Below the pieces are notes generated by a model. That model had not been told where the DNA came from. It saw only the letters and a list, made by a program, of their open reading frames with translations, and ran no database searches. Position numbers and translations under genes: made by a program. From an uncultured Candidatus Cloacimonadota bacterium (lineage in GTDB: Bacteria; Cloacimonadota; Cloacimonadia; Cloacimonadales; JAJBBL01): a stretch of DNA of 64,000 nucleotides. The stretch is from NCBI GenBank assembly GCA_964464175.1, contig CAYXFD010000006.1, forward strand, positions 2,893-66,892. The letters are read 5' to 3'. Position 1 is the stretch's first letter. Every line of letters begins with the position of its first letter. Of this stretch, positions 2,936-30,820 are shown in pieces.

Positions 2936-3168
2936 TACGATAACACTCCATAATAGTTTTTAGTTAAGTTTTTTGTAACTGATTATTTGTCAAGCATATT
3001 GTAGCAGTTAACAGAGCTGAAGGTACAATTTCTTGACTATGTTTACTTTTCTTCTCCGGAATTAATTATCTTTATCCAAGAGCAGGAATCTCCACTTTGA
3101 ACAGAGAATGATAATGCTCTGTTCACAATTCTTTGCGATCAGAACACTTAAATGAATAACTCCTCACT

Positions 3169-8170: not shown

Positions 8171-9922
8171 TCATTTATCTTGATTTTCTCTTTTCAGAAT
8201 TCGTGTCCAGGTGTCCTTTAGAGAAACTATCCGGTTGAAGACAGGTTTCCCCGGCTCCGAAGATTCAGGGTCAACAAAGAAGTATCCCTGCCTTTCGAAC
8301 TGATACCTCGTCTCTCCGGCCGCCTCTTGTAACATTGGTTCAAGCCGGCAAATATTGAGTTGCCTGAAAGAGTCGGGATTGATCTGATCCCGGAAGTCGA
8401 TGTTTTCCTCTCCTCCCGGATTTGGGACAGTGAACAGATGTTCATAGAGACGGACGGTAGCCGGAAAACTCTCTTTTACCGTAACCCAGTGCAGAGTAGC
8501 TTTGACTTTTCTGTTATCGGGGGCAGAACCTCCCTTTGTTTCAGGATCATAAGTGCAGTGAAGCTCGAGGATCTCTCCGGTTTTATCATCCTTGATTACC
8601 TGTTCACATCTGATAAAATAGGCATAGCGAAGTCTGACTTCCTTACCGGGAGATAAGCGGTAAAACTTTTTGGGAGGGTCTTCCATAAAGTCATCCCTTT
8701 CGATATATAATTCCCGGGAAAAGGGGATCTTTCTCTTACCGGTCTCCGGTTTTTCCGGATTGTTAATCGCATCCAGATACTCGGTTTCATCGTGGGGATA
8801 GTTGGTAATAATCAGTTTCAAAGGGTTAAGGACTGCCATTGCCCTCGGAGCCTCTCTGTTCAGCTCTTCCCGGAGACAATGTTCAAGCAGGGCAATATCA
8901 ACGACACTTTCATTTTTCGCTACTCCGATCCTTTCGGAGAATTTTCTGATTGAAGATGGAGTGTAACCTCGTCTTCTATAGCCAGCAATAGTTGGCATCC
9001 TCGGGTCATCCCAACCGGTAACGAACTTCTCCTCCACCAGAGAAAGAAGCTTTCGCTTGCTCATTACCGTGTAATTGAGATTCAATCTGGCAAATTCAAG
9101 CTGCTGCGGATGATGCTTTACCGGCAGATTATCAAGAAACCAATCGTAGAGTTCTCTGTTGTTATCGAACTCTAGTGTACAGATGGAATGAGTAATACCT
9201 TCGATAGAGTCTGATAAACAATGAGCAAAATCATACATCGGGTAGATACTCCACCGGTCTCCTGTCCGGTAATGGTGGGCTTTTCTGATCCGGTAAATGA
9301 GAGGGTCACGCATCTTCATGTTCGGAGATGCCATATCGATCTTTGCCCGTAAAACATAACTCCCGTCAGGAAACTCGCCTGCTTTCATTTTTCTCAGCAG
9401 TTCCAGATTTTCTTCTACCGGTCTTTCGCGGTAAGGACTCTCTTTGCCCGCTTCTTTAACGGTGCCGCGATATTTTCTGATCTCCTCTTCACTCAAAGCG
9501 CAGACATAAGCTTTTCCCTCTTTGACCAGACATTCTGCATATTCATAGAACTTGTCGAAATAATCGGAGGCAAAAAAGAGTCTCTCCTGCCAGTCAAAAC
9601 CGAGCCAATGGATATCATTTTTGATGGAATCGACATATTCGGGACTCTCAGTTTGGGGATTCGTATCGTCAAAACGTAGATTACAGAGTCCTTTGTATTC
9701 TGCTGCGAACCCGAAATTCAAACAGATAGATTTGGCATGACCAATATGAAGATAGCCGTTTGGTTCCGGCGGGAAACGCGTATGTACTCTCCCTTCATGT
9801 TTATTACTCTTCAGATCATCTTCAATGATATTCTTAATGAAATTCGGGGGTGTTTTATAGTCTGAAGCAGCGTCATGATCCTTTTTTGTTTCTTCTTTGT
9901 TATTAGTTATATTCTCTTTCAT
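8171..9922 (-). CDS. glnS: glutamine--tRNA ligase
   Basis: Class I motifs [14 protein letters not shown] (HIGH) and VMSKRKL (KMSKS). The ORF extends to 9961, but the ATG at 9922 is preceded by AGGAGAA and is the likelier start. Confidence 0.92.
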
Positions 9923-10000
9923 CTTTTCTCCTGTCGTTAGATAGAAAAACAGTACTCTCACCGGATTGTTTCATAATTAGCAGAAGCTCACAGCGAAGCT

Positions 10001-11437
10001 TCATTGTTGATTCGCTTTCTTTAATCGTTTGATAAACTCATCTTTGCCCAAGATATTGAAAAGTGCCGGGATATTCGGACCGTGTGGTTTTCCGAACAAG
10101 CAGAGTCGTAAAGGGAAATACAGATCTTTCCCTTTTATTTTGAGCTCTTCCGTAGTCTGTTTAATTAGTTGTTCAATTGTTTCTTCGGTAACTTCCGGTT
10201 GTTTCGCCAGTTCCTGGAGCCAATAGGAATACAATTTCCGGGCATTCTCACTTTTAAGAAGCTGCAGGTCTTCATTGCTGTATTCCAACTCTTCATAAAA
10301 CATCTTAGTTTGCTCGATTATTTCAGGCAGGAGAGTAATTCTCTCCCGGGCAAATTCAATAACTTTTTTGAACTTTGTCTTGTCGCTGAGATCATATCCT
10401 GCCTTCAAATAGTAATCCCTAACCCGGTCGGCAAGATCATCCAAATCCATATTTCTCAGATAATGACCATTCATCCATTTCAGTTTTTCCAGATCGAAAA
10501 CAGCCCCTGATTTTGTAATCCTTTTCAAGCTGAAAACCTGTTCTAACTCCTGCAGGGAAAAGATCTCCCGATCACTGGAATCATGCCAGCCCAATAAGGC
10601 AACGAAATTTATAAGTGCTTCCGGCAAGAAGCCCTTCTCCAAAAAATCCTCGACTGCGACATCTCCCTGCCTCTTACTTAACTTACTCTTGTCGGGATTA
10701 AGAAGCAAAGGGAGATGGGCGTATTCAGGTTTTTCCCATCCGAACGCTTCATAGAGGAAGATGTGTTTCGGGGTACTGCTTAGCCATTCTTCACCCCGGA
10801 TAACATGACTTATCTCCATTAGATGGTCATCGATCACGTTAGCCAGATGGTAAGTAGGATAACCATCCGATTTGATCAGTATCTGATCATCAACCATATC
10901 CCAGGGAAAGGCAACTTCTTCTCTGATCAGATCAAAAAATCTGATCGTACCGGTTTCCGGCAGCTTTGCTCTGATGACACAGGATTCTCCGTTTTCTAAT
11001 CTCTTTTGCACTTCTGCGGGAGGCAGGCTTCGGCATCTGCCGTCGTATCTGATCATCTCTTTTTCCTCTCTCTGTTTATCCCGCATTTCGCTCAGAGTTT
11101 CCGGGGTACAGAAACAGTAATAAGCCTTATCTTCTGCAAGCAGCTGTTGAGCACGACGGTGGTATATCTCGTTCCGCTGTGACTGGAAATAAGGACCAAA
11201 ATTACCCTCTTTATCAGGTCCTTCATCATAAGTTATCCCAATTTGCTTTAATGTCCGCAGCAGACTCTCTGTTGCTCCTTCGATATAGCGGCTCCGATCA
11301 GTATCTTCTATTCTTAAAATAAAGGAACCTCCGTTTTTTTGGGCAAAAAGATAATTATATAATGCTGTTCGCAATCCACCGACGTGTAGATATCCGGTAG
11401 GACTGGGAGCAAATCTCACTCTGACGAATTTGTTCAT
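10001..11437 (-). CDS. gltX: glutamate--tRNA ligase
   Basis: Motifs RFAPSPTGYLHVGGLRTAL and KLSKR. The ORF extends to a TTG at 11470. The ATG at 11437 with GGGAGG upstream is the likelier start. Confidence 0.92.
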   Translation of the reverse strand: MNKFVRVRFAPSPTGYLHVGGLRTALYNYLFAQKNGGSFILRIEDTDRSRYIEGATESLLRTLKQIGITYDEGPDKEGNFGPYFQSQRNEIYHRRAQQLLAEDKAYYCFCTPETLSEMRDKQREEKEMIRYDGRCRSLPPAEVQKRLENGESCVIRAKLPETGTIRFFDLIREEVAFPWDMVDDQILIKSDGYPTYHLANVIDDHLMEISHVIRGEEWLSSTPKHIFLYEAFGWEKPEYAHLPLLLNPDKSKLSKRQGDVAVEDFLEKGFLPEALINFVALLGWHDSSDREIFSLQELEQVFSLKRITKSGAVFDLEKLKWMNGHYLRNMDLDDLADRVRDYYLKAGYDLSDKTKFKKVIEFARERITLLPEIIEQTKMFYEELEYSNEDLQLLKSENARKLYSYWLQELAKQPEVTEETIEQLIKQTTEELKIKGKDLYFPLRLCLFGKPHGPNIPALFNILGKDEFIKRLKKANQQ

Positions 11438-11650
11438 TCCATACCTCCCTGTTGTTGACAATATTTTCAAGTTTTATTTTTCCTATGTAGTGTCAATGAT
11501 TTAGTTAGTCCCGATTCTCTGACAGAACCTAAACCGGATTATCTCTATTCCTCTTGGAAAGGGTTACAGACGAAGGTGTTCAAATCAGGTTGCTGACTTC
11601 GTAGAGGGAGTGAGAGCGTTAATATTTCGTGCTCCGTTATCACTAATAAT

Positions 11651-11759: not shown

Positions 11760-14399
11760 ATGAAACACGCAGGTATTTTTTTAATCACGGTTATTATTCT
11801 TGTCTGGAGCTCCTTGATGCTTTCAGCTCCGTCCGATCTTGAAAAATTCCAGGCTAATTCCGGTACTTTGTCAACGCTGCAGGAGAGAACTGAGTATTTT
11901 GTTGATTTTGAAGGAGATGGCGAAACCAAAACGAGTTATACCGCCGGTACGGTTAGTTTGAGTGGAAAAGATTGGCTTTTGGACAACATATTAATAGGGA
12001 CACACGATAACGATCTGAAATTTGGTGACAGATCAGCCAGGTTCAGACATCAGACGGCATTGGCTGCTACGATGACCATGCTGGAGGATAAAGTAAATGG
12101 CCTGGGGACGTTATCTTTTTATTATTCCCGGTCTAACTTTTCTAACGATGGGGCACCGGATGCACCGGTTATTGTGGTTGAATATAGTACTAATCAGGGT
12201 GATGACTGGGTTCAGATCGGAACTGATATCAACCTTGATGGTGTTAATGATCTGACCTTATATTCCAACACGGTCAATGTCGAAGGGAATGTGAGGATCA
12301 GATTTCGCAGTATTTCCGGTAGTGACGGGAGAAGATTCAACATTGACGACATTTTGCTAACCGATCATGGAGATGATCAAGCCGTAGCAATGCCCACTTT
12401 CGATCCCCCGGGAAGCTCTTATTTCGGTACGGTAATGGTCACGATATCGACCACTACTCCGGATGCTACAATTTACTATACTACTGATGAGAGTGAACCT
12501 ACGGAAGATTCCTTCCTCTTTGCAGATCCTATCGAGGTAGATGAATCAATGGTCATCAAAGCACGCGGATATGCAGCAGGCTTTAATCCCAGTTTAGTAT
12601 CGACAGCAAATTACACGATAATAACTCCGGTTGAAGTTACTGATGTAGCTGCTCTGCGAAGCAGTCCTCAGGATGATACAGTTTACCATTTATCGAATGA
12701 GGTGATTTTGACCTTCCAGCAATCGTTTCGCAGCCAGAAGTATATCCAGGATAATACTGCCGGGATATTGATTGATGATAATTCCGGGATCATAACGACA
12801 GATTATGAGGTTTATGACGGCATAACAGGTTTGATGGGTACTTTGAGTACTTACGGTAATATGGTGCAGTTCGTTCCGGTTCAGGATCCCGGGGCTGCTT
12901 CTTCGGAAAACAATCAGGTTCTTCCCCTTACTATTACGTTAGCAGATTACATTGATAATTTCATGGATTATCAATCGAGACTGGTGAAGATCAATAATGT
13001 CAGTTTCACGACTGCAGACGGGACTGCCCAGTTTTCTACCGGACAGGTATATCCCATCAGTGATGGAACCCTAACCATTGATTTCCGGACTACTTTCTAT
13101 GATGCAGATTATATTGGAGAGATAATTCCGATTGAAAGTATCTCTCTGCAGGGATTGCCTAATTCCCGGTCTGAAGGTGATTTTATTACTGCCCGGAGTT
13201 TAGCTGATTTTCTTCCGGCATCAGGGGATATTGATCTGATCATCCAGCCTCAAATGGTTAACTTCGGAGAGATTGTTGTCAATGAGGTATCCGAACCGGT
13301 GAACATTACCCTGACCAACAACGGCAGCATTAACATAACCTTAGTTGATCTCTTATTAGATGGAGATGATACCGCTGATTTCATTCTGGAAGATATCAAT
13401 GACTATCCTTTGGTTCTAACTCCGCAGGAAGAGATTGATTTCAATGTCTCTTATTCTCCTACTGAAGAGGGATTAAGCAGTGCTTTCGTTGAGATCGAGG
13501 TGACCGATAATGACAATGTAGTCTTTTATGAAGTATCTCTCAGCGGCAATGGTGTATTATTGAATCCACCCCAGAATGTCGCTGCTGAGATCATTAACTG
13601 GCACGATGTTGAGATTACCTGGGAGAGCCCTCAAACTCAAGGAAACAGACAGACGAGAGAGTTACTGGGTTATGATGTCTATAGGAATGATTTTCTGATC
13701 AGCCCCGATACACCATTACCTCCATCAGTCACAGCATACGTGGATTTAGAGGTACCTGCCGGACTCCATGAATACTATGTCAGGGCTCTATACAGTACCA
13801 CCTGTGCTGGTTCTGATACAGTGGAAGTTTCCATTACAGAATCTGTCGGTCTTGTAGGAATGAACCCCGAACCGGGGAGTTATCAAAGTGAAGTTACAGT
13901 TACTCTTTCTGTTCAAAGTGATGACTGGGACGGAGTAATCTTCTACACTTTAGACGGAACTGAACCAAACGATGAGTCTTTGGTCTATGATAATCCCATT
14001 TATATCACGGAAACCTTAACCATTAAAGCCAGAGCTTACGAGTTTGGAGCGGTAACCGGAGAAGTTTCGAGTGGGGAATACCTCATAGTGGTTTCGACGG
14101 ACGACGGATCTTTAGCTCCTTTAACAACAATTCTCAGACAGAATTATCCTAATCCTTTCAATCCTGAGACTGTTATCAGTTTCTCTCTGAAGGAAGATGA
14201 CCGGGTTAGAATCTCAGTATATAATATCAGAGGGGAGAGGATCTATACACTTCTGGATAGCAATCTGGAAGCAGGAGAGCATAGCTTGTTGTGGGAAGGA
14301 AAGGATGATCAGGGAAGGGTAATGCCGACCGGTGTCTATTTCTACCGGATGGAGACTTCGAAGGAGAGTTTAAGCAAGAAAATGCTGCTGATAAAATAA
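11760..14399 (+). CDS. secreted multidomain surface protein with T9SS-type C-terminal sorting domain
   Basis: 879 aa; signal peptide; SD AGGAGA. Two chitobiase/hexosaminidase-C-like (FN3-associated) modules (ATIYYTTDESEPTEDS...IKARGY and VIFYTLDGTEPNDES...IKARAY). Ig-like region VNFGEIVVNEVSEPVNITLTNNGS. C-terminal domain at 14142-14396 (NYPNPFNPET...GVYFYR...KMLLIK). Confidence 0.7.
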   Translation: MKHAGIFLITVIILVWSSLMLSAPSDLEKFQANSGTLSTLQERTEYFVDFEGDGETKTSYTAGTVSLSGKDWLLDNILIGTHDNDLKFGDRSARFRHQTALAATMTMLEDKVNGLGTLSFYYSRSNFSNDGAPDAPVIVVEYSTNQGDDWVQIGTDINLDGVNDLTLYSNTVNVEGNVRIRFRSISGSDGRRFNIDDILLTDHGDDQAVAMPTFDPPGSSYFGTVMVTISTTTPDATIYYTTDESEPTEDSFLFADPIEVDESMVIKARGYAAGFNPSLVSTANYTIITPVEVTDVAALRSSPQDDTVYHLSNEVILTFQQSFRSQKYIQDNTAGILIDDNSGIITTDYEVYDGITGLMGTLSTYGNMVQFVPVQDPGAASSENNQVLPLTITLADYIDNFMDYQSRLVKINNVSFTTADGTAQFSTGQVYPISDGTLTIDFRTTFYDADYIGEIIPIESISLQGLPNSRSEGDFITARSLADFLPASGDIDLIIQPQMVNFGEIVVNEVSEPVNITLTNNGSINITLVDLLLDGDDTADFILEDINDYPLVLTPQEEIDFNVSYSPTEEGLSSAFVEIEVTDNDNVVFYEVSLSGNGVLLNPPQNVAAEIINWHDVEITWESPQTQGNRQTRELLGYDVYRNDFLISPDTPLPPSVTAYVDLEVPAGLHEYYVRALYSTTCAGSDTVEVSITESVGLVGMNPEPGSYQSEVTVTLSVQSDDWDGVIFYTLDGTEPNDESLVYDNPIYITETLTIKARAYEFGAVTGEVSSGEYLIVVSTDDGSLAPLTTILRQNYPNPFNPETVISFSLKEDDRVRISVYNIRGERIYTLLDSNLEAGEHSLLWEGKDDQGRVMPTGVYFYRMETSKESLSKKMLLIK

Positions 14400-14542: not shown

Positions 14543-17500
14543 ATGAAAGGTGTATTAATTGCCTTAATACTATGTCTGCTTACCGGATTTGTCTATGCGG
14601 AGTGGACGATAGTGGCATCATATCCAATTACCGGTAAAGCATCAGGTTTAGCTTATGACGGTACATATCTTTACTTTGGTATTTACGGGGCTGACGGAGG
14701 AAGGATTTTTCAGTTTGACCCTGTGACCGGGCAGGAGACTTTGCTGTTCAACAATCCCAACTTATCCGACAGTTACGGATTAACTTATGACGGACAGAAT
14801 CTCTGGACTATCGATAGAGTAGCTCCGAGTTCAACACCTGCTTACGCCTTGAAACTCGATATGACGGGTAATATCATCTCCCAGTTTGATCTGCCTGATT
14901 TCTATATGTCGGGAATAGCCTATGATGACGGGGATTTTTGGGTGATGACCTATTATCCCGATCCCGGAGTAGTCTATAAAGTTACCGATACAGGAACGAT
15001 CCTTCAACAGTTTACACCACCGGAAGACCAACCTTGGGATATCTGTCTGCAGGGAGATGACCTTTGGATAGTTGATTATTGGGAATATACGATCCACAGA
15101 GTAGATCAGACCGGTACTATTTTAGAAGCTCAAATGTCGGAGATCCAAAGACCGGCAGGAATTGTCCATGACGGGCAGTATCTCTGGTATCTGGCAGGAG
15201 CACTCGGGCAGCCGAGTACACTCTATAAAGTTGATCTTGGCGGGACAGGAACTCCGGTTATTAACGTTACTTATAATGACTATGATTTTGGGAATGTACT
15301 GATAGATGATACCGTATCAGCCGATATAACAGTATCAAACAGCGGTACGGGTGATTTAGTCATCAGCGATATCTCATTCTTTTCCGACATCTTTGCCACA
15401 GATGCTCTCTTTCCGATTACTCTGGAACCGACTCAAACAGCGGTTGTGTCCTATACTTTTACCCCCGACAACTGGGGTGAGTTTATTGACGTTATGACAA
15501 TTCACTCCAATGACCCGATTACTCCTGCCAAAGAGGTTGATGTAGCAGGATACGGAGTATTTCCGGAAGCCCATATTGCTGCAGTACCTGATAATTATGA
15601 CTATGGCATGGTTAGAGCAGGTGCTGATACAGGAAGATTTTTCACGATCAGCAATCAGGGTATGACTGATCTGCAGATCAGTAACCTTAGCTTCTCGGAA
15701 CAGAGCTTCTTTATCGATGACACGGTGGAATTTCCGATTACCCTAACAACACGGGAAGAGTATGAACTGAGGATCTGGTTTCATCCTGGAGGTGCCGGTC
15801 AGATCACCTCTACAGCTACATTCAGCAGTAACGATCCTTCAAATCCCCAGTATGATGTAACCCTGGTGGGAACCGGTCAGACCGCCGATCTAACCATAGG
15901 AACGCAGCTTTGGAGCTATCAGATAGAAGGAACAACTTTTACCAATATCCGGGCGATAAAACCGATTGAAGATATCTGGGGTAATGGCTTAAATGACGTT
16001 ATAATCTGTGGTGAAGATAATTATGTCAGAGCTTTCAATGGAAATTCCTCTGGTCTTGGTGACGTCATCTGGGAACAGCATATCCCTTCCGGAGCTGTCT
16101 ATTCGTACCGCGGATTGACGATAGCCGGAGATTTGAACGGAGACGGTTACGATGATGTCGTTGTCGGGACAACCGGGGGAGACCGTTCGGTTAGAGCTTA
16201 TTCCGGGAAAACCGGTACTCAGCTCTGGCAGTTCAATACTAATAATTACGGAAGCGGCGGCTGGGTTTATCAGGTAGATGCCCGGTTTGATTACAATAAT
16301 GATGGAGTTGCAGACGTTCTTGCCGCTACCGGAGATGATGTTAACGGATTAGGTCCGAAACGAATCTTTTTGATCAACGGAGCAAACGGAACCTTGATCT
16401 GGGAGAGATATGCTATGGGACCGGCTTTTTCTGTGATAGGAATAAACGATTTCAATGGCGATGGTATTCCTGATGTACTCGCCGGCACCTCGAATGAATC
16501 TGAGACCCAAGCTTCGGTCTTTGGTATCAATGGAGCAAACGGCAATATCTTATGGTCATTCCAGCCTGCCGGAAGCTCTGTCTGGGCTTTAGCCCAAATT
16601 GACGATCTAACTGATAATGGAATCCCTGATGTCATGGTAGGTTCTTTTATGGGCGGAGGGAATTACTATGCCCTCAATGCCACGAACGGAGAAGTAATCT
16701 GGTCAGGTTCTACCGGTGCTACGCTGGTTATGGATTTTAAGGTGTTAGGTGATGTAAACGGAAACGGTTATAATGATATTGCTGTCGGTCATACTTCAGC
16801 ACATGCTGCTGTCATTGGAGGTTCTGACGGTCAGTATGTCTGGTCACAAGGGCTTGCCGACAATGCCTGGAATATTGATAATGCCGGTGATCTCACCGGG
16901 AACGGGATCAACGATCTGGTTGTCGGCACACTCTATCAGAGTAATTATGCCTACTTTATCGACAGTACAGACGGGGAAATCCTCGCTTCCATTCCGACCG
17001 GAACACCTGTCGATGCGATCGGAACGATTGGAGATGTTACCGGTGACAATTCCCGGGAGATGATAGTCGGAGGCAGAAACGGTATCATCCGCTGTCATTC
17101 GGGCGGACCGGTAGCTGATCAGGAACCGGGTTATATTGAAGGTAATATTGAGATTAGTGAAGGACCGGGAGATGTAACTGAAGTTGAGGTTTCCGCTAAT
17201 GGAACAACTGTGAATCCCAATGAAGACGGTGATTATTTTCTTGCTTTACCACCGGGTACTTATACGGTAACAGCTACACTTGTGGGTTATATTGCCGATC
17301 CGGTAACGAATGTAGCCGTTGTAGCTAATGAAGTGACAGCGGGAGTTGATATTCAGTTGGAGTTGTTACCTCTTACCGCACCGGCAGATCTTATCGTCGA
17401 TGTCCAGACCGGAGTGTTAAATTGGGAGATGCCAGATTCAGAGCATGATTATTATCCTCTGCACTACAATGTATATCTCGATGACAACTTCATTGATGAT

Positions 17501-17929
17501 ACGGAAGAATTGACCTATACCTTGGAGGATTTAACACCTGAGGTTACCTATATAGCAGGAGTTTCAGCAGTTTACCCTACCGGAGAATCTGAACTGACTA
17601 CTATTGAGTTCACCTTCGAAGGGGTAGATACGGATGATGATCTCTTGCCGCTCGTTACCAAGGTTCATGGAAACTATCCCAATCCCTTCAATCCGGAAAC
17701 CAGGATCCTTTTTTCCTTAGAATCTCCCTCTCAGGTTATTCTTGATATCTTCAATATTAAAGGCGAAAGAGTAAGAAGACTGGTCAATGAAAAGCTGGAG
17801 AGAGGCAATCACAGCAGGGTCTGGAACGGTGAAAACGAAACAGGGAAACGCCAGGCAAGCGGGATATATTTCTACCGGTTTAAGACGGCAGATCATAGTG
17901 AAACCGGGAAAATGTTGATGTTGAAGTAA
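14543..17929 (+). CDS. secreted FG-GAP/integrin-alpha-like beta-propeller protein with T9SS-type C-terminal domain
   Basis: 1128 aa with a signal peptide. N-terminal propeller-like repeats (GLAYDGTYLYF, GLTYDGQNLWT, GIAYDDGDFWV, GIVHDGQYLWY). Two Ig-like modules. Seven Ca-binding-type FG-GAP repeats (DLNGDGYDDVVVGT, DYNNDGVADVLAAT, DFNGDGIPDVLAGT and others). CarboxypepD_reg-like module (PPGTYTVTATLVGY). C-terminal domain at 17672-17926. Confidence 0.75.
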   Translation: MKGVLIALILCLLTGFVYAEWTIVASYPITGKASGLAYDGTYLYFGIYGADGGRIFQFDPVTGQETLLFNNPNLSDSYGLTYDGQNLWTIDRVAPSSTPAYALKLDMTGNIISQFDLPDFYMSGIAYDDGDFWVMTYYPDPGVVYKVTDTGTILQQFTPPEDQPWDICLQGDDLWIVDYWEYTIHRVDQTGTILEAQMSEIQRPAGIVHDGQYLWYLAGALGQPSTLYKVDLGGTGTPVINVTYNDYDFGNVLIDDTVSADITVSNSGTGDLVISDISFFSDIFATDALFPITLEPTQTAVVSYTFTPDNWGEFIDVMTIHSNDPITPAKEVDVAGYGVFPEAHIAAVPDNYDYGMVRAGADTGRFFTISNQGMTDLQISNLSFSEQSFFIDDTVEFPITLTTREEYELRIWFHPGGAGQITSTATFSSNDPSNPQYDVTLVGTGQTADLTIGTQLWSYQIEGTTFTNIRAIKPIEDIWGNGLNDVIICGEDNYVRAFNGNSSGLGDVIWEQHIPSGAVYSYRGLTIAGDLNGDGYDDVVVGTTGGDRSVRAYSGKTGTQLWQFNTNNYGSGGWVYQVDARFDYNNDGVADVLAATGDDVNGLGPKRIFLINGANGTLIWERYAMGPAFSVIGINDFNGDGIPDVLAGTSNESETQASVFGINGANGNILWSFQPAGSSVWALAQIDDLTDNGIPDVMVGSFMGGGNYYALNATNGEVIWSGSTGATLVMDFKVLGDVNGNGYNDIAVGHTSAHAAVIGGSDGQYVWSQGLADNAWNIDNAGDLTGNGINDLVVGTLYQSNYAYFIDSTDGEILASIPTGTPVDAIGTIGDVTGDNSREMIVGGRNGIIRCHSGGPVADQEPGYIEGNIEISEGPGDVTEVEVSANGTTVNPNEDGDYFLALPPGTYTVTATLVGYIADPVTNVAVVANEVTAGVDIQLELLPLTAPADLIVDVQTGVLNWEMPDSEHDYYPLHYNVYLDDNFIDDTEELTYTLEDLTPEVTYIAGVSAVYPTGESELTTIEFTFEGVDTDDDLLPLVTKVHGNYPNPFNPETRILFSLESPSQVILDIFNIKGERVRRLVNEKLERGNHSRVWNGENETGKRQASGIYFYRFKTADHSETGKMLMLK

Positions 17930-18075: not shown

Positions 18076-20028
18076 TTATTTCTCGTAAGAGAAGACGATA
18101 CCGCTGTTAGGAAAGATCCATTCTTCGTTACCGGTTTTCACTTTTATAGTCTTTTCCTTCTTCGCTATCACCGGATATTTACTCTGCCCGGATAATATGC
18201 TGACCACTTCAATTTCACCGATATCTGTTTCGGAATAAGCAAAGCTGATCTCTACTCCCTGGGTGATCTCGGTGATATAGACGGTGAGTTGGTGTGATTT
18301 TTTCGGATAATATGTCTTGGTTGCTATCGAGAAATCGACCTCTTGTCCGACCAGATCCTGTAAGCCGGCATGACTGCATTTTATTTCCATACAACCGTTT
18401 CTAACTTCTCTTTCATGATTAAGGTTGATACTGTTTATGCTGACAGTTGTTACTTCGAAAGATCCGGAGGAGAGGCTGAAGTTCTCGTCCAGAAGCCAGC
18501 GGTACTCTACATCACGGCGGCGGAAATAGACCTCCAGGTCTTCATAACGGTTTGCGCAGGCAACATAAAAGAACTCCTGCTGCAAGATCTTTCTGAAAGT
18601 AAGGGTGGTTTCTACTTCGTAGTACTCTGACAGGCTTTTATCCTGAGGTTCATTAAAAGTTATCTGGTGCCGGAAATCTTTACGGTAATGGATGTTCTCA
18701 TCCTTATCGGTAAAGAATCTTTTGAGAAACTCGGTGTATAATAGGGAAGCAATCTCTTTGCTCTGTAATCTTTGACTGATGGCAGTTTCAATGATAGTAT
18801 TGAGTTTTGTATCGGAAAAATCATGAGAAACAAAACCTCTTCTGGCCAGGGGAGAGGTGGCAACAATTCGCTCATCCCGGCGGTAATAGCGTCTTGCCCG
18901 CCTGCCGATCTGACTCAACAGCTCGTAGGAGAGTCCCTTGTAAAGTGCCGTTACCTTTTCCGGAGATAAATCCCCGCTATTGAGCAGGATAACCTCATCT
19001 TCGATACATATATCAGGATTATCGGTGATATCAATCGTGATCATATCCATACTGACCCTGCCCACCACCGGATACAAGCGGTCTCTGATAATAACTCTGC
19101 CCCGGTTGGAAAGCAGAAAATCATATCCGTCAGCGTAACCGACAGGTACTATAGCGTAAACTGTTTCCCGTTCCGCTTTGAAGGTGCGGTTATAACCAAT
19201 TGTTTCACCCTTATCTGCCTGTTTTATCTGACAGACAACCGATTTGAAAGTCATAACCGGTCTTAGATCGATCTTTTCCCGCAAACTCTCCTCAGAATAT
19301 ACTCCGTAAGATAAGAGACCGATCCTCACAAGATTGGCATAGTCCGGTGAACAGGTAATAATCCCCGAACTGTTGGCTATATGCACGTACTTAAAGGGGG
19401 AACTGAGTTTATTGAGCAGCCGGTGAAATCTCTCCGCTTGAAGTTGAGTAAACTCCTTATCGGATTCGCTGCTGCTGAAATGACTGAAGATCCCCTCAAT
19501 TTCAATATTTGGCAGTAATTCTATCTGTTTGATTATCTCTGCTGCTTTATCATAGCGAATACCGCTTCTACCCATTCCGGTATCGATCTCTAATTGTACC
19601 CTGAATCTGAAACTCTGAGCGTCAGTCGCTTCTATTCCCGCGGCAACACTGTTCTTCCGGGAAGCTATTTTGTGATTGAGTTCACGGGCAAACTCCAGGT
19701 TACCTACTGTTGGAGTGAGTCTGTTCTCCAGAACAAGATCAATCTCTTCCGGAAAACTCGGGGAAAGGATGAGGATGGGGATTTTGATGTTCTGATAACG
19801 GAGTAAAGCCCCCTCTTCGGCGTTAGCAACCCCCAGGTAAGAAGCACCGAGCTTTATGCTTTGTAAGGCTATCTCATAAGCACCGTGACCATAAGCGTCA
19901 GCCTTAACGATCTGCATAAATCCGGTTTTCTCCGGTAAGAGACTTCGTAACTGTTCAAGATTATGGCTGAAGCTGTCCAGATCGATCTCGACCCAGCTCC
20001 TTTCAAATCCCATGTTCCCCTTTCTCAT
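18076..20028 (-). CDS. alr: alanine racemase fused to a ~255-aa C-terminal domain of unknown function
   Basis: 650 aa. Alr motifs are VKADAYGHGA (PLP Lys), IDTGMGRSG, GETIGYNRTF (catalytic Tyr region), VPVGYADGY and VGRVSMDM. The racemase ends near aa 390 and the ORF continues uninterrupted to aa 650. Confidence 0.85.
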   Translation of the reverse strand: MRKGNMGFERSWVEIDLDSFSHNLEQLRSLLPEKTGFMQIVKADAYGHGAYEIALQSIKLGASYLGVANAEEGALLRYQNIKIPILILSPSFPEEIDLVLENRLTPTVGNLEFARELNHKIASRKNSVAAGIEATDAQSFRFRVQLEIDTGMGRSGIRYDKAAEIIKQIELLPNIEIEGIFSHFSSSESDKEFTQLQAERFHRLLNKLSSPFKYVHIANSSGIITCSPDYANLVRIGLLSYGVYSEESLREKIDLRPVMTFKSVVCQIKQADKGETIGYNRTFKAERETVYAIVPVGYADGYDFLLSNRGRVIIRDRLYPVVGRVSMDMITIDITDNPDICIEDEVILLNSGDLSPEKVTALYKGLSYELLSQIGRRARRYYRRDERIVATSPLARRGFVSHDFSDTKLNTIIETAISQRLQSKEIASLLYTEFLKRFFTDKDENIHYRKDFRHQITFNEPQDKSLSEYYEVETTLTFRKILQQEFFYVACANRYEDLEVYFRRRDVEYRWLLDENFSLSSGSFEVTTVSINSINLNHEREVRNGCMEIKCSHAGLQDLVGQEVDFSIATKTYYPKKSHQLTVYITEITQGVEISFAYSETDIGEIEVVSILSGQSKYPVIAKKEKTIKVKTGNEEWIFPNSGIVFSYEK

Positions 20029-20080: not shown

Positions 20081-21427
20081 CTAAAAATAGCGGGCTGCTA
20101 TGTCTGCCAATTTTGAGCGTTCACCTTTGACAAGGGTCACATGACCGACAATGCTCTCTTTTCTTAACTTCTCAACTGACATACTGAGTCCATTGCTCTC
20201 CGAGTCAAGATAGGGAATATCGATCTGATAGGGGTCACCGGTCATTACCAGCTTCGTTTTCTCTCCCGCTCTGGTAATAATGGTTTTCATCTCATGAGGA
20301 GTTAAATTCTGAGCCTCATCAATAATAATATACTGATCGGGTAAACTTCTTCCCCGGATGTAAGTGAGAGGTTCCAGTTCAATAAAACCGTGATCGAGAA
20401 AATCATTAAGGGAAGGTCTTTTTTTATTCAATACCCGGTTGTTAGGATTATCTTCCATTTCATTATGACTATGGATAAGAATCTCCATATTATCATAGAT
20501 CGGCTGCATCCAGGGATCAAATTTCTCCGTTTTGGTACCGGGGAGATAGCCCAAGTCTTTGCCCAAGGGTGAAATAGGTCTTGAAATTACTAATCTGCTG
20601 TAGCGGTTTTCTTCAACTACCTTCTGTAAGCCGGCAGCGATCGCAAGAAGAGTTTTCCCTGTTCCCGCCTTACCGATAAGGGTTACCATCTGAACATCAT
20701 CGTCCAGCAACAGGTCAATAGCCATTGTCTGTTCTTCATTTCTCGCTTTGATGCCGAAAACTAACCCTCCGGTATAATGTTTCAATTCCTGGATACTGTT
20801 GCCTTCATGATAAAAACGGGTTAGCAGTCTCTCCTCCGGATTATCCTTATTAGTAAGCCGGACAAATTGATTGGGGGAAAATCCCTTAACAGGACTATCG
20901 ATCTTCTTTGATTCCTGAAATTCCTTTATAACCGAAGCTTCAACTTCCAGATCGGAATATCCGGTGAAAAGCTCTTCGAAATTTACCCTGTCTGCCTCAA
21001 AATCATTAGCTTCCAATCCCACTGCATCTGCCTTGATCCTGATATTGGCATCTTTGGAGACAAGAATGACTTTCTGATCGGGATTGTTCTTCTGTACGTA
21101 TAGAGCCGTACCGATTATAAGGTTGTCATTTTCGTCCGAAAGCAGTACATCACTGGTCAGAGTTTCGACTTTTTTACTCATTACCACCTGGATGATGGAA
21201 CCATTTTCAATCTTGACTCCATTTTGCAAAGATCCTTCTTTCCGGATTTTATCGAGATAACGGCTGATCTGGCGGGCATTTCTTCCGATCTCATCTACAT
21301 TTTTCTTGAATTTATCTACCTCTTCGATAACCGTCATCGGGATGACAATCCTTTCCCCTTTGAAACTGAACAGGGCATTGGGATCATGCAATAGTACGTT
21401 CGTATCTAAAACAATAGTATTACTCAT
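20081..21427 (-). CDS. PIN-domain + PhoH-like ATPase (YlaK/PhoH2-type)
   Basis: N-terminal PIN (IVLDTNVLLHDP) and C-terminal PhoH with Walker A GKAGTGKT and IIIDEAQN. The ORF reaches a TTG at 21448. The ATG at 21427 with GGAGA upstream is the likelier start. Confidence 0.85.
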   Translation of the reverse strand: MSNTIVLDTNVLLHDPNALFSFKGERIVIPMTVIEEVDKFKKNVDEIGRNARQISRYLDKIRKEGSLQNGVKIENGSIIQVVMSKKVETLTSDVLLSDENDNLIIGTALYVQKNNPDQKVILVSKDANIRIKADAVGLEANDFEADRVNFEELFTGYSDLEVEASVIKEFQESKKIDSPVKGFSPNQFVRLTNKDNPEERLLTRFYHEGNSIQELKHYTGGLVFGIKARNEEQTMAIDLLLDDDVQMVTLIGKAGTGKTLLAIAAGLQKVVEENRYSRLVISRPISPLGKDLGYLPGTKTEKFDPWMQPIYDNMEILIHSHNEMEDNPNNRVLNKKRPSLNDFLDHGFIELEPLTYIRGRSLPDQYIIIDEAQNLTPHEMKTIITRAGEKTKLVMTGDPYQIDIPYLDSESNGLSMSVEKLRKESIVGHVTLVKGERSKLADIAARYF

Positions 21428-21906
21428 ATCTTTGTCTCCATAAACCAAAATACAATAAAGATGACGGCTGTTGCTGTCAATATTTTTGTTAGCAAAATGA
21501 TCTCATCCTCTCCCTTCTGAACAGAGGAATAACAAACCAAAGCGAGCCGGGAAAAATCACTTGCTGTACCTTAGATCTTCTCCTGAGGGTTAACAGTTTT
21601 TGTTTGTGTTTAGCAGCATCATTACCCAGGACTATTAAAGGTAGAAACCAGGGTAAGCAGAGAGTAATAGCACAGTCGGCGTGAACCATCTGAAGTATTT
21701 CTCTCTGATTACGCTCTTGTATCCTCAGGATAAGATGCAGATAGTAATGTGTTTTTTGCTGAAGAGAATGATAAGGTTATGAGTTATCAGCTGAAACCTC
21801 AATGTAGGATAAACAATAATCCTCTTGCCCAACCGGGAGAAAAAAAATCTTTACAAAATATCAGGCGGGGAAAAACTATCCTGATACTAAAAACAAAGGA
21901 GGAAAA

Positions 21907-26717: not shown

Positions 26718-28016
26718 ATGACATTGTTAGAAAAAATTGAAAACAGAAAAGCACTGGTAGCAGTTGTGGGATTAGGTTATGTCGGACTACCAATGGCCGT
26801 AACAGTAGCAAGGAATGGTTATCAGGTATTAGGTTTCGATATCCAGCAGAAAAGGGCGGATCAAGTCAACCGGGGTGAGAACTATATCGGTGATGTCGAT
26901 TCGGATGAGTTTCAACAATTGGTGAATAAAGGACTCATAAAGGCTACGACCGACTATTCACTCATCAAGGAGATGGATGTAATTATGGTTGCTGTTCCGA
27001 CACCTTTGGACAAGTACAAGCAGCCTGACTCATCTTATGTCGAATCTTCAACTAAATCAATTGCCCAGTACATAAAGAAAGATACTCTATTGGTTCTGGA
27101 GAGTACAACCTATCCCGGAACGACCAGAGAGATCGTTACTCCTGAAATTGAAAAACGGGGTTTGGTTGTCGGTAAAGACGTCTATATTGCCTTCTCACCC
27201 GAAAGAGTAGATCCCGGTAATAAAGACTATAAAACAGACAATACTCCCAAAGTGGTCGGCGGTATGACAGCTGAATGTAATCGGATCTCCGAAGTTTTCT
27301 ATAATTCGGTGTTAAAAGCTCCGGTCTTCATTGTTTCCTCTCCTGAAGTTGCCGAGATGGAGAAGATCTATGAGAATACTTTCCGCAACATAAACATAGC
27401 GCTGGCAAATGAAATGACCATTCTCTGTGAAAAGATGGGTATTGATATCTGGGAAGTCATCGAAGCCGCGAGTACAAAACCCTACGGCTTTATGGCGTTC
27501 TATCCCGGACCTGGTATTGGCGGGCATTGTATCCCTCTCGATCCTTTCTATCTAACCTGGAAAGCAAGAGAGTTTAACTATCACACCCGCTTGATAGAAC
27601 TTGCCGGAGAGATTAATAACTCCATGCCCGATTTTGTTGTCGGGAAAGCAATGTCAATTCTGAATAGAAAAGGTTTAGCTATCTCAAAAGCTAAAATACT
27701 TCTGATTGGAGCTGCCTATAAGAAAGATATCGATGATCTAAGAGAATCACCGATTCAGATGCTTATTGATCTGCTGGAGAAAAACGGGTGTAGTCCTGAT
27801 TATAACGATCCTTATATTCCTGACTTCGTTAATGAGATCAATCATAAAGAGTATAGATCTGTTTCTTTGGACGACCTGAGTCAATATGATCTGGTAATCA
27901 TCATAACCGATCATTCAATCTATGATTATGATGATATAGTCGCTAAATCCAAGCTGATATTAGATACCAGGTTAGCGACAAAAGGAATGAAAGACGAGAA
28001 GATAATCCGTCTTTAA
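26718..28016 (+). CDS. UDP-N-acetyl-hexosamine 6-dehydrogenase (WbpA/TviB-like nucleotide-sugar dehydrogenase)
   Basis: 432 aa with Rossmann motif VGLGYVGLP and catalytic Cys motif GPGIGGHCIPLDPFYLTWKA, which is typical of the WbpA/TviB branch. SD AAGGAGA. Confidence 0.85.
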   Translation: MTLLEKIENRKALVAVVGLGYVGLPMAVTVARNGYQVLGFDIQQKRADQVNRGENYIGDVDSDEFQQLVNKGLIKATTDYSLIKEMDVIMVAVPTPLDKYKQPDSSYVESSTKSIAQYIKKDTLLVLESTTYPGTTREIVTPEIEKRGLVVGKDVYIAFSPERVDPGNKDYKTDNTPKVVGGMTAECNRISEVFYNSVLKAPVFIVSSPEVAEMEKIYENTFRNINIALANEMTILCEKMGIDIWEVIEAASTKPYGFMAFYPGPGIGGHCIPLDPFYLTWKAREFNYHTRLIELAGEINNSMPDFVVGKAMSILNRKGLAISKAKILLIGAAYKKDIDDLRESPIQMLIDLLEKNGCSPDYNDPYIPDFVNEINHKEYRSVSLDDLSQYDLVIIITDHSIYDYDDIVAKSKLILDTRLATKGMKDEKIIRL

Positions 28017-28200
28017 AGAACAGTAAGGCATTGTTATCCGTTTCAGAAGCAAAAAAAAAAGAAGTACTGACACATGAGCAATCTTCGAATAGGAAGAAGA
28101 GAGAAAAGCCGGGACTTTGAAGCTCTCTCTCTTTGTTTCAATAATGGGGTTTTAATACTGATCCCTGCAATGTAGATTTAGCTTCAGAGGGAGAAAGACT

Positions 28201-28758
28201 TTGAAAGAAACTGAGAACGGTTTTACTGAATTGTTTGGTGGTTTGGTTCCGGGTTCAGAGAAATCACATTGGTATGTGATCTACACCAAACCGAGAAGAG
28301 AAAAAAAATTAGCTGAATATGCCTTTAAGAACAATATTCACTACTATCTCCCCTTGGTTGATAGTATCAAATTCTACGAGAGGAAAAAAGTAGTTTATAC
28401 AAAGCCGATGTTTACCAGCTACTTATTCGTAAAAGCAGATCCCTGGGAAAAACAGCAGCTTTGTATCTCCGGGCACACAGTATCATTCCTCAATGTCAAA
28501 GATGAGCAGAGTTTTCTGGAAGAGCTGCGGTACATTTACCATGTCAGAACAAAAAATGTCGAGATCACCCCTCATCATTACCTGGAAAAGGGGACGAAAG
28601 TCAGATTTACAGGCGGACCTTTAAAAGGGGTCAGCGGGTTAGTAGCGGACAGCACTAATATCAAAAAGGTCATTCTTCAGGTTAATATCCTTAAACGGGC
28701 AATTTCCGTGACTGCAGAAAGCAATCAATTGGAGATAATCAATGATCATGATCTGTAA
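28201..28758 (+). CDS. UpxY-family (NusG/RfaH paralog) transcription antiterminator
   Basis: 185 aa. NGN domain WYVIYTKPRREKKLAEY...YLPL...PMFTSYLFVKAD, plus KOW (GTKVRFTGGPLKGVSGLV). TTG start preceded by GGGAGA. Confidence 0.7.
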   Translation: MKETENGFTELFGGLVPGSEKSHWYVIYTKPRREKKLAEYAFKNNIHYYLPLVDSIKFYERKKVVYTKPMFTSYLFVKADPWEKQQLCISGHTVSFLNVKDEQSFLEELRYIYHVRTKNVEITPHHYLEKGTKVRFTGGPLKGVSGLVADSTNIKKVILQVNILKRAISVTAESNQLEIINDHDL

Positions 28759-28898
28759 ACAGGGCTGGAATACTGGAAAGAGAAGTCGAGTATCTAATAC
28801 TCCAACAGCAACTCTTTTAGTCTTCCGGATATCTTTCATGACAGAGAAACTGAAAGTTTGATCTGTCTCACATTATTTTATCAAAAGGAGTGTGATAT

Positions 28899-29876
28899 AT
28901 GGCTGTAATTGACTTAGAGCAAAGAGCCAAAAGTTTCCTTGATAACCGAAAGCGAAATATTATGGTTATTCTTCTTATTGTCGGTCTTTTGGTTATCATC
29001 GGAACCGGTCTCTATACCGTGGATCCCGAAGAAGTAGGAGTTATTCAAAGATTTGGTAAATATGTCCATACTACTGAACCGGGGCTCCGCTTTAAGATAC
29101 CTTTTGGGGTCGATAAGCTAACCAAGGTGAAAGTAAAGTATGTCTTCAAGGAGGAGTTCGGATTCCGTACTTTGGAAGTCGGTCAAAGCGCAACCCGGTA
29201 TTCGCAAAGAGACTTTTCGGGTGAATCTCAGATGCTGACCGGAGATCTAAACATCGCAGATGTAGAATGGATAATTCAATATCAAATAAATGACCCGATA
29301 AAGTATCTCTTCAATGTCCGCGATGTAGAGGGGACTTTGAGGAACTTAGCAGAATCATCAATGAGACAGGTAGTCGGGGATCATAGTGTCGATGAAGTAA
29401 TCGTCCTGACCCGTCAGGAAATTGCTTTCCAAACAAAACTAATCCTGCAGCAACATCTTGAAGATTATCAGACCGGTTTGGTCATCAGAAACGTCAACTT
29501 GCAGAATGTAACTCCTCCTCTTCCGGTGCAACCGGCTTTTAATGAAGTAAATGCTGCTTTGCAGGAAGAAGAAAGGATTGTTAACGAAGCACGACAGAAA
29601 TATAATCAGGTCATTCCGGAAGCGAGAGGAAAAGCCCTGCAGATAATCGAACAAGCTGAAGGCTATGCGGTCAACCGGGTTAACAGAGCAACCGGAGATG
29701 CCAATCGTTTTGTTGATGTCTGGTCTGAATACAACAGGGCAAAGACCGTAACCAAGAAACGGCTTTACCTTGAAACAATGGAAGAGGTTCTTCAGAAGAT
29801 TGAGAAGATCTATATTGTTGACGAAGATCAATCGGGGATACTTCCTCTTCTTGATTTAGAGAAAGGGGGTAGCTAA
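28899..29876 (+). CDS. hflK: FtsH protease modulator HflK (SPFH family)
   Basis: 325 aa with an N-terminal TM and SPFH core (VDPEEVGVIQRFGKYVHTTEPGLRFKIPFGVD). Coupled to hflC by a 1-nt overlap. Confidence 0.85.
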   Translation: MAVIDLEQRAKSFLDNRKRNIMVILLIVGLLVIIGTGLYTVDPEEVGVIQRFGKYVHTTEPGLRFKIPFGVDKLTKVKVKYVFKEEFGFRTLEVGQSATRYSQRDFSGESQMLTGDLNIADVEWIIQYQINDPIKYLFNVRDVEGTLRNLAESSMRQVVGDHSVDEVIVLTRQEIAFQTKLILQQHLEDYQTGLVIRNVNLQNVTPPLPVQPAFNEVNAALQEEERIVNEARQKYNQVIPEARGKALQIIEQAEGYAVNRVNRATGDANRFVDVWSEYNRAKTVTKKRLYLETMEEVLQKIEKIYIVDEDQSGILPLLDLEKGGS

Positions 29877-30808
29877 TGAAACAGACATTATTGATTATCC
29901 TTGGTGTCATCTTACTCATTGTGCTCGTAAATGCTTTCTACATTATCGATGAAACAGAACAAGCAATTATCACCCAGTTTGGTGAACCGATCGGAGGGGC
30001 TAGGACCGAAGCGGGTATCTTCCTGAAGACACCTTTTATTCAAAAAGTTCATTATCTTGAGAAAAGGATTCTCAAATGGGACGGAGAACAAAACCAGATT
30101 CCCACTCAGGATAAGAAGTTTATCTGGGTTGATACATTTGCCCGCTGGCGTATAGTAGATCCCCTTTTATTCTATCAGTCAGTACGCTCAGAGATCTTTG
30201 CCCAGAGTCGTCTTGATGATATTATTGATGGTGTAACCCGGGATATTATCACCCTTAATACTCTGATAGAGATAGTCCGTGATACTGATCGTGAACTATC
30301 TTTTGCTATTGATTTTGAAGCTGATTACTATGAGGAGATTCAATCAGAGATTAAGGTAGGGAGAAGAGCTATAGCAGATTCCATCTTTTCTGTAGCCAAG
30401 CCCTTGATCGAGCAGTTCGGGATAGAACTGATAGATGTTCAGGTCAAAAGGGTCAACTATATCGAAGATGTGAGAAAACAGGTCTATGACAGAATGAGTT
30501 CCGAACGGAAAAAGATTGCCGACCGGTACCGTTCAAGCGGACACGGCAGGGCAGCTGAGATCATCGGAAGAATGGAAAGAGAATTACAGCAGATAGAATC
30601 GGAAGCATACAGAACCTCGCAGGAGATCATGGGCAGGGCAGATGCTGAAGCTACCGGCATCTATGCTTCTGCCTATAATCGTGATCCGGGATTTTTTGAG
30701 TTTATGAGAACGCTGGAAGCTTATAAGAGAACGATCAATGATCAGAATATCATGATCATGACGACCGATAGTGATTTCTATAAATTGATGAAAAAAAGTG
30801 GTAATTAA
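29876..30808 (+). CDS. hflC: FtsH protease modulator HflC (SPFH family)
   Basis: 310 aa with an N-terminal TM and FYIIDETEQAIITQFGEPIGGARTEAGIFLKTPFIQKV. Confidence 0.85.
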   Translation: MKQTLLIILGVILLIVLVNAFYIIDETEQAIITQFGEPIGGARTEAGIFLKTPFIQKVHYLEKRILKWDGEQNQIPTQDKKFIWVDTFARWRIVDPLLFYQSVRSEIFAQSRLDDIIDGVTRDIITLNTLIEIVRDTDRELSFAIDFEADYYEEIQSEIKVGRRAIADSIFSVAKPLIEQFGIELIDVQVKRVNYIEDVRKQVYDRMSSERKKIADRYRSSGHGRAAEIIGRMERELQQIESEAYRTSQEIMGRADAEATGIYASAYNRDPGFFEFMRTLEAYKRTINDQNIMIMTTDSDFYKLMKKSGN

Positions 30809-30820
30809 CGAGGTAGATTG

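Follow-up and report, generated by a model that had tools for sequence, protein, structure and literature searches.

The alanine racemase (Alr) of an uncultured Candidatus Cloacimonadota bacterium carries, behind a complete catalytic region, a C-terminal module that belongs to no named family, and genome and protein comparisons show this fusion to be real and fixed across the phylum Cloacimonadota. The gene lies in a stretch of 64,000 nucleotides (nt) of contig CAYXFD010000006.1 (assembly GCA_964464175.1), which we call the window. It is complete, occupies 18076..20028 of the minus strand as one open reading frame (stop codon at 18076-18078), and encodes 650 amino acids (aa). An original prediction, made from the letters of the window, had singled out 18079-18843 as an in-frame extension of a family that could not be assigned; these coordinates are exactly aa 396-650 of the 650-aa frame. 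Both the extension and its resistance to assignment are upheld by the analysis below, which also gives the module a predicted fold, a set of relatives outside racemases, and a tentative role.

A fusion fixed across the Cloacimonadota

Alanine racemase is a fold-type III enzyme dependent on pyridoxal 5′-phosphate (PLP), an obligate homodimer that racemises L-Ala to D-Ala. In the window protein, the catalytic region (aa 10-385; 18874..20001, minus strand) comprises the PLP-binding TIM barrel and the C-terminal beta domain, and is delimited by Pfam, NCBIfam, PDB, the structural model, and conservation. It matches Ala_racemase_N (PF01168) over aa 15-244 (1.7e-55 in Pfam) and Ala_racemase_C (PF00842) over aa 258-382 (1.5e-37), and it scores 319 bits against the NCBIfam equivalog TIGR00492 "alr", for which the cutoff is 168. 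The VanT, DadX, and MurF-Alr models all remain below their NCBIfam cutoffs. Among PDB sequences, 49 racemases are matched, the best being the Alr 4y2w (2e-63, aa 10-385), and every one of these matches stops by query residue ~397. The residues K42, Y46, R154, H183, R235, Y279, M327, D328, and Y368 are invariant in 76 of 76 homologues with the fusion. The PLP lysine, Lys42, is encoded at 19903-19905 (minus strand) and the catalytic Tyr279 sits in GETIGYNRTF; in Alr, this tyrosine is the second base and comes from the partner subunit. The roles of the active-site residues are presumed from motif alignment and from the numbering of the Geobacillus stearothermophilus Alr. The match to classical Alr through the motifs quoted in the original prediction is thus confirmed. 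By alignment, the racemase part of the fusion is intact, with all canonical catalytic residues kept, and the protein is best read as the housekeeping (biosynthetic) PLP-dependent alanine racemase of this bacterium.

Two further features of the racemase part deserve mention. The position equivalent to the carbamylated Lys129 of the G. stearothermophilus Alr, seven residues ahead of the invariant Arg in GMGRSG, is E147 in the window protein (codon 19588-19590); among the 76 fusions, Asn is the commonest residue there (53), followed by Glu (11), Lys (10 only), and Asp (2). The barrel also contains an insertion, given as ~20 aa in the original prediction, which PDB alignment, model, and comparison of homologues place at aa ~124-140 (19609..19659, minus strand). 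This insertion is real, with ~17 extra residues, but it is not conserved: it is present in 3 of the 76 fusions, with differing lengths, and it is disordered in the model (aa 131-138 with a predicted local distance difference test, pLDDT, below 50). We therefore regard it as a variable surface loop of no evident significance, and not as a functional feature.

The distribution of the fusion was established by scanning species-representative genomes (one per species) with two peptide patterns from the extension. This gave 312 confirmed matching stretches, of which the best 80, all from metagenome-assembled genomes, were fetched for the comparison of loci. In 80 of these 80 loci, Alr and extension share a single frame, free of stops and 622-715 aa long, so related genomes do not have two separate genes here. 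The labels of the 80 are Cloacimonadota or subordinate taxa in 77 cases, Armatimonadota in 2, and Neomarinimicrobiota in 1. Compared with the window protein, these homologues are 45-71% identical in the Alr part; for the extension the range is 45-68%, far more than chance would give. A search with the full-length protein found at least 120 clusters of 607-690 aa, and every named one among them is annotated as plain "alanine racemase". An early word-indexed search with the domain alone had given 12 relatives, a figure that reflects the sensitivity limit of the index and not rarity of the fusion. Among the public copies, P0135 matches the window protein with 100% identity but is called from Met6 (645 aa); it comes from NCBI, JGI, ENA, and Logan, on contigs of up to 141 kb.

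We attach a negligible probability to an artefact in which a separate downstream gene would only seem fused to alr, owing to a frameshift, the loss of a stop codon, or a chimeric assembly. Two metagenome contigs do have the gene predicted as fragments, but the breaks fall within the Alr N-domain and spare the junction; the cause is a run of N in one contig (L001) and multiple frameshifts, at 1.6x coverage, in the other (L002). The artefact is excluded because 80 of 80 loci and at least 120 protein clusters carry the unbroken fusion. In addition, GC content is even across the junction between Alr and extension, and the same junction recurs in hundreds of independent assemblies, which disposes of the chimeric join considered in the original prediction.

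The survey of long Alr homologues that had been proposed there identifies the fusion as a feature of Cloacimonadota, as labelled in 77 of the best 80 loci, with a few distant copies labelled otherwise. These distant fusions of Alr and module are found under a Gemmatimonadota label (locus L092, 6001-9284) and under a Syntrophales label (L093, 6001-9061; L094, 5035-8095), with 27-30% identity in the module. The module would have been gained in an ancestor of the Cloacimonadota; given the distant copies, the fusion is either older than the phylum or has been transferred.

Conservation is spread over the whole protein. The mean pairwise identity among the 76 fusions is 0.57 in the barrel, 0.63 in the Alr C-domain (0.59 for Alr overall), and 0.54 in the beta-sandwich that makes up most of the module, and it reaches its highest value, 0.71, in residues 391-425. 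The module is therefore about as conserved as the catalytic barrel, and the linker more so.

An unnamed beta-sandwich and its relatives

The extension (aa 391-650) has no match in Pfam (E ≤ 1), NCBIfam, or PADLOC, and none among PDB sequences (E ≤ 10), either alone or as a family-wide profile; these PDB searches used three different profiles (A3, A5, and A6) as well as phmmer, all with negative results. As originally stated, it contains no transmembrane segment (maximum 19-residue Kyte-Doolittle mean of 0.84) and no internal repeat (self-BLAST). There is no tblastn match to it in phage or plasmid collections, and PADLOC-DB 2.0 has no defence-protein match for the extension or for seven of the homologues with two transmembrane helices (2TM) described below. 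A mobile-element or defence origin of the module is rejected on these two grounds.

Two AlphaFold2 runs, one for the extension (13 sequences) and one for the whole protein (76 full-length homologues), agree with each other. The Alr body (aa 10-392) is confidently modelled. It is followed by a linker or helical hairpin (aa 391-445; 18694..18858, minus strand), defined by model, conservation, and profile comparison, in which aa 394-444 have pLDDT <50 in both models, yet two helices are predicted (~406-417 and 425-441). The remainder is a beta-sandwich domain (aa 446-650; 18079..18693, minus strand), defined by model, Foldseek, and alignment, with about 17 strands, pLDDT mostly >90 in the two runs, and the C-terminal signature EW(I/V)FPxSG(V/I)xF(x)Y. 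The loop after its first strand tolerates variation in length: locus L001 has there (~3060-3130, protein P0003) a short tandem duplication, LSPFSRGN...LSPFLRGN, and insertions in the same loop are also found in L005 and L014. The monomer model of the whole protein (predicted template modelling score, pTM, of 0.61) consists of two rigid bodies with no confident mutual orientation; together with the low pLDDT of the linker, this gives no support to a module docked on the Alr body. The highest conservation and the lowest model confidence of the protein coincide in segment 391-425, which suggests that this segment takes on an ordered structure only on contact, whether with the other subunit of the dimer or with a partner.

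A Foldseek search with the predicted structure of the extension, also proposed in the original prediction, points to M1 peptidases. There are 84 PDB matches at E ≤ 1e-3, and almost all are M1 aminopeptidases or LTA4H; the top match is 3kd4 ("putative protease"), and Ost1 is also in the list. Dozens of M1 structures are matched with probability 1.00 and E from 4e-5 to 5e-4, with a query TM-score (TMq) of 0.35-0.45, a root-mean-square deviation of 5-9 Å, and at most 10% identity, for a query in which about 55 of the 260 residues are low-confidence. In a viral structure library, giant-virus M1-like proteins rank first. This is consistent with a remote resemblance of the predicted fold, not family membership, to the non-catalytic N-domain of M1 peptidases. 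The matches include a two-domain Deinococcus M1 enzyme, which has only an N-terminal beta domain and the catalytic domain. Because the N-domain is the only all-beta domain in two-domain M1 enzymes and in LTA4H, it is presumably the N-domain that the module resembles. There is no Peptidase_M1_N match in Pfam for the extension (E ≤ 1) or for 28 homologues, and the window protein has no HExxH gluzincin domain. The likeness of fold at these low scores is thus all that was found in the way of a characterised domain, and the original statement that the extension could not be assigned to a family holds.

An exhaustive phmmer search of 1.84 billion protein cluster representatives returned only 86 relatives of the module, which fall into three groups. 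The first consists of full-length Alr fusions of 626-671 aa, with identities in the extension down to 27-30%. In the second, formed by proteins of about 340-430 aa, the module stands behind two or three N-terminal transmembrane helices; this is the arrangement of most non-Alr homologues, in which the helices directly precede the helical hairpin. The third comprises a few stand-alone proteins of about 280 aa, such as P0026. The membrane-anchored proteins are reached by phmmer down to 2e-18, and their profile is homologous to that of the Alr-fused class over 257 columns, hairpin included (hhalign probability 100%, E = 4.4e-43). They are all annotated as "hypothetical" and have no match in Pfam, NCBIfam, or PADLOC. 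From the charges flanking their transmembrane helices (positive-inside rule), the module would be cytoplasmic in these proteins.

When 84 Alr-fused and 62 membrane-anchored sequences are compared, conservation common to both classes is limited to I, L, F, C, W, V, G, P, and a single Thr; the common positions include W511, W637, P640, G643, F646, C491, F487, and F524. The Alr class has in addition its own polar invariants, K480, E508, R510, T589, and S642, with H579 nearly invariant, and these may form a class-specific binding surface. Because the two classes have no set of acid, base, and His residues in common, the module probably catalyses no reaction and is better seen as a scaffold or binding fold than as an enzyme. 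The converse, that it is a cryptic enzyme, for instance a peptidase or amidase for peptides that contain D-Ala, and the protein hence bifunctional, strikes us as very improbable. One could cite for it the invariance of E508, R510, and K480 and the near invariance of H579 in the Alr class, as well as the existence of bifunctional enzymes of the D-Ala branch (MurF-Alr, MurE-MurF, and MurC-Ddl are NCBIfam models). Yet the module is an all-beta sandwich that shows neither a cofactor motif nor a nucleophile motif, no enzyme family is matched, none of these polar residues is conserved in the homologous 2TM class, and the equivalent domain of M1 peptidases is non-catalytic.

In one subclade of the membrane-anchored proteins (L083/84, L085, L089, and L091), a conserved gene overlaps the start of the module gene. 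Its product has about 390-430 aa and an invariant HExxH...GLEEG(L/I)AE motif. The resulting cassette of HExxH gene and 2TM-module gene spans 4758-7257 in L083, 1718-4217 in L084, 4725-7104 in L085, 3-1704 in L089, and 3785-6248 in L091; one copy adjoins integrase genes. The partner has no match in PDB or PADLOC, and its Pfam matches are sub-threshold and to a DA1-like metallopeptidase family only, so that we leave it unassigned to any known peptidase family and take these matches as a lead. As a lead too, an M1-N-like module beside a gluzincin-like gene would echo the architecture of M1 enzymes. Actinobacterial 2TM homologues are found without the HExxH partner, in Actinacidiphila alni (L086), a Streptosporangiaceae bacterium (L088), and a metagenome contig (L090); they lie in variable regions, and their neighbours are HTH_31/DUF5753, DUF6879, HATPase_c_2, Ser/Thr kinase, HNH, and DNA methylase genes.

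Possible roles of the module and its genomic neighbours

The reading that we put first, to which we give somewhat less than an even chance, is that the module is a non-catalytic interaction unit that couples the racemase to a partner, most plausibly the next enzymes of the D-Ala branch, with segment 391-425 as the interface. The module would leave the chemistry of the racemase unchanged and bind a protein or peptide ligand. It would couple Alr to the next steps of the branch (Ddl, MurF), or let an intermediate of the branch regulate Alr, and segment 391-425 would order at an interface in the Alr dimer or with the partner. The link to the D-Ala branch is drawn from the distant fusions. The one in L092 lies upstream of murF and overlaps it by 4 nt (the murF product scores 446 bits with TIGR01143, cutoff 289), and those in L093/L094 lie 83 nt upstream of ddl. 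A role as sensor, regulator, or docking module had been suggested in the original prediction; it fits the non-catalytic pattern of conservation, the sharing of a mobile module with membrane-anchored proteins, and these murF and ddl neighbours.

Several observations weigh against such a coupling. The adjacency to murF or ddl comes from two lineages only and would also be expected for an ordinary alr gene. In the Cloacimonadota, the gene downstream of the fusion differs between loci and is often convergent, and the neighbour that is conserved encodes a PIN-PhoH ATPase and is not a mur or ddl gene. The monomer model leaves the module undocked and favours no particular interface. Finally, the likeness to M1 enzymes is remote by the scores given above, and the correspondence with the N-domain is itself indirect.

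The module could instead be an allosteric sensor that tunes the racemase on binding a peptide or small molecule; D-Ala-D-Ala, UDP-MurNAc-peptide, or a free amino acid would be examples. This overlaps with coupling to a partner but predicts a ligand in place of a partner protein, and we consider it rather unlikely. In M1 peptidases, the N-domain is a non-catalytic accessory wall of the substrate cleft and takes part in binding peptide substrates by their free N-terminus, so an M1-N-like fold would suit a sensor. The translational coupling of the module to the HExxH...GLEEGxAE protein in one 2TM subclade points in the same direction, but the assignment of that partner as a peptidase relies on the motif and on sub-threshold matches only. 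The class-specific invariants K480, E508, R510, T589, and S642 and the proximity of distant fusions to ddl or murF also agree with a sensor, against which stand the lack of a conserved polar pocket common to both classes and of any recognised ligand-binding motif.

A role in localisation is suggested by the two or three N-terminal transmembrane helices that most non-Alr homologues bear ahead of the same hairpin: the module would bring Alr to the cytoplasmic face of the membrane, near MraY/MurG and the synthesis of lipid II. We hold this to be improbable. The Alr fusion itself has no transmembrane segment, its linker helices are weakly amphipathic (hydrophobic moment of 0.27-0.36), and the extension is acidic (isoelectric point of 5.5, net charge of −7). 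The weak moments and the acidity disfavour direct binding to anionic lipids, and direct membrane binding through amphipathic helices is not supported.

A more speculative synthesis, which we regard as doubtful, is that the module represents a new and very remote branch of the M1-N fold that recognises a peptide or protein. In Cloacimonadota and, sporadically, in the lineages binned as Gemmatimonadota and Syntrophales, it would link Alr, physically or by allostery, with Ddl/MurF or with the dipeptides or stem peptides that these make; in the membrane-anchored relatives, it would form with the HExxH metallopeptidase a split M1-like system of two proteins. If this were true, an M1-N-like recognition unit on Alr would be a previously unknown point of control or channelling in the supply of D-Ala for peptidoglycan.

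The immediate genomic context of the fusion is well conserved on one side. In the window, a PIN-PhoH (YlaK-like) ATPase gene, identified as an open reading frame with Pfam matches (20081..21448, minus strand), lies 52 nt upstream of alr on the same strand. Such a gene is directly upstream of the fusion in 69 of 80 loci, and 9 of the 11 loci without it have almost no upstream sequence. The spacing across loci (L003-L082) is often a gap of 0-4 nt or an overlap. Because this neighbour is conserved in 69 of 80 loci, the two genes are probably co-transcribed; they seem to form a conserved pair, for which no functional connection with D-Ala synthesis is obvious. No conserved downstream partner gene is found in the Cloacimonadota loci, where downstream genes are variable and mostly convergent.

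The window as a whole is an ordinary housekeeping region with rpsO, pnp, Glu/Gln-tRNA synthetases, S-adenosylhomocysteine hydrolase, and cargo proteins of the type IX secretion system (T9SS). T9SS C-terminal sorting domains (Por_Secre_tail/FlgD_ig) are present in two secreted proteins of very large size, encoded on the plus strand at 11760-14399 and 14543-17929. Chitobiase-C/Fn3-associated repeats occur in one of them, FG-GAP/PQQ beta-propeller repeats in the other. The gene at 14543-17929 is convergent with alr, and the most closely related genome (L003) encodes a homologue of its product downstream of the fusion. On the minus strand, 8171-9961 and 10001-11470 are tandem genes for class-I aminoacyl-tRNA synthetases of Glu/Gln type, one with GlnRS-type C-terminal anticodon-binding domains and the other with a GluRS-type Anticodon_2 domain. 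At 26718-32143 (plus strand), a pair of SPFH/Band-7 genes stands between two paralogues from the UDP-glucose/GDP-mannose dehydrogenase family.

Comparison with known systems

Textbooks present alanine racemase as an enzyme of two domains, and it is the target of the antibiotic D-cycloserine. An obligatory, phylum-wide fusion of this enzyme would suggest that the supply of D-Ala to the cell wall is organised or regulated at a level not recognised so far. The fusion can also serve as a clean sequence marker of the Cloacimonadota. The domain family to which the module belongs has three architectures (Alr-fused, 2TM-anchored, and stand-alone), for which databases say "alanine racemase" or "hypothetical protein", and naming it would improve the annotation of several hundred genomes. 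What is new is a conserved C-terminal accessory domain family on a known enzyme, fusions within the Alr family being already known as such. We found no paper on a C-terminal module of alanine racemase, or on this feature in Cloacimonadota, in the open-access full-text literature. The finding amounts to a gap in annotation and a testable hypothesis on D-Ala supply; nothing yet suggests a new principle.

Classical Alr/DadX (PDB 4y2w, 1sft/1l6f; TIGR00492) has the same two domains and active-site residues as the N-terminal 385 residues of the window protein. It ends at about 360-390 aa, whereas the window protein goes on for 260 aa with the hairpin and the beta-sandwich. Where the G. stearothermophilus Alr has its carbamylated Lys, the window protein has Glu and most fusions have Asn.

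The closest parallels to the module by predicted fold are the N-domains of M1 enzymes, including those of LTA4H and 3kd4, and Ost1/ribophorin I, which are like it all-beta and of about 200 aa. In M1 enzymes, the beta domain precedes an HExxH-x18-E catalytic domain in the same chain, whereas the module is attached to a racemase. M1 enzymes also lack the helical hairpin that precedes the module, and there is no detectable sequence relationship. By contrast, the 2TM "hypothetical proteins" (SAMN05216251_13339 of Actinacidiphila alni, and P0028, P0107, and P0111) are true homologues of the whole module and have in common with the Alr-fused form the C-terminal signature W-x-F-P-x-G-G-V-x-F-x-W. In these proteins, transmembrane helices replace Alr; they are rare and scattered, and are found in variable regions with integrase, methylase, helix-turn-helix, and kinase neighbours.

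The fusion of an Alr-type racemase to a module of cell-wall D-Ala/D-Ser metabolism has its precedent in MurF-Alr (NF008897) and in the membrane-bound serine racemase VanT (NF033132). The window protein is neither of these, since it scores 299 bits against a cutoff of 804 for the former and 188 against 900 for the latter, with the racemase part only being aligned. MurF-Alr and VanT carry their extra module at the N-terminus, and its family is known (a Mur ligase in the former, a membrane acyltransferase-like domain in the latter), whereas in the fusion described here the module has no named family, is soluble, and stands at the C-terminus.

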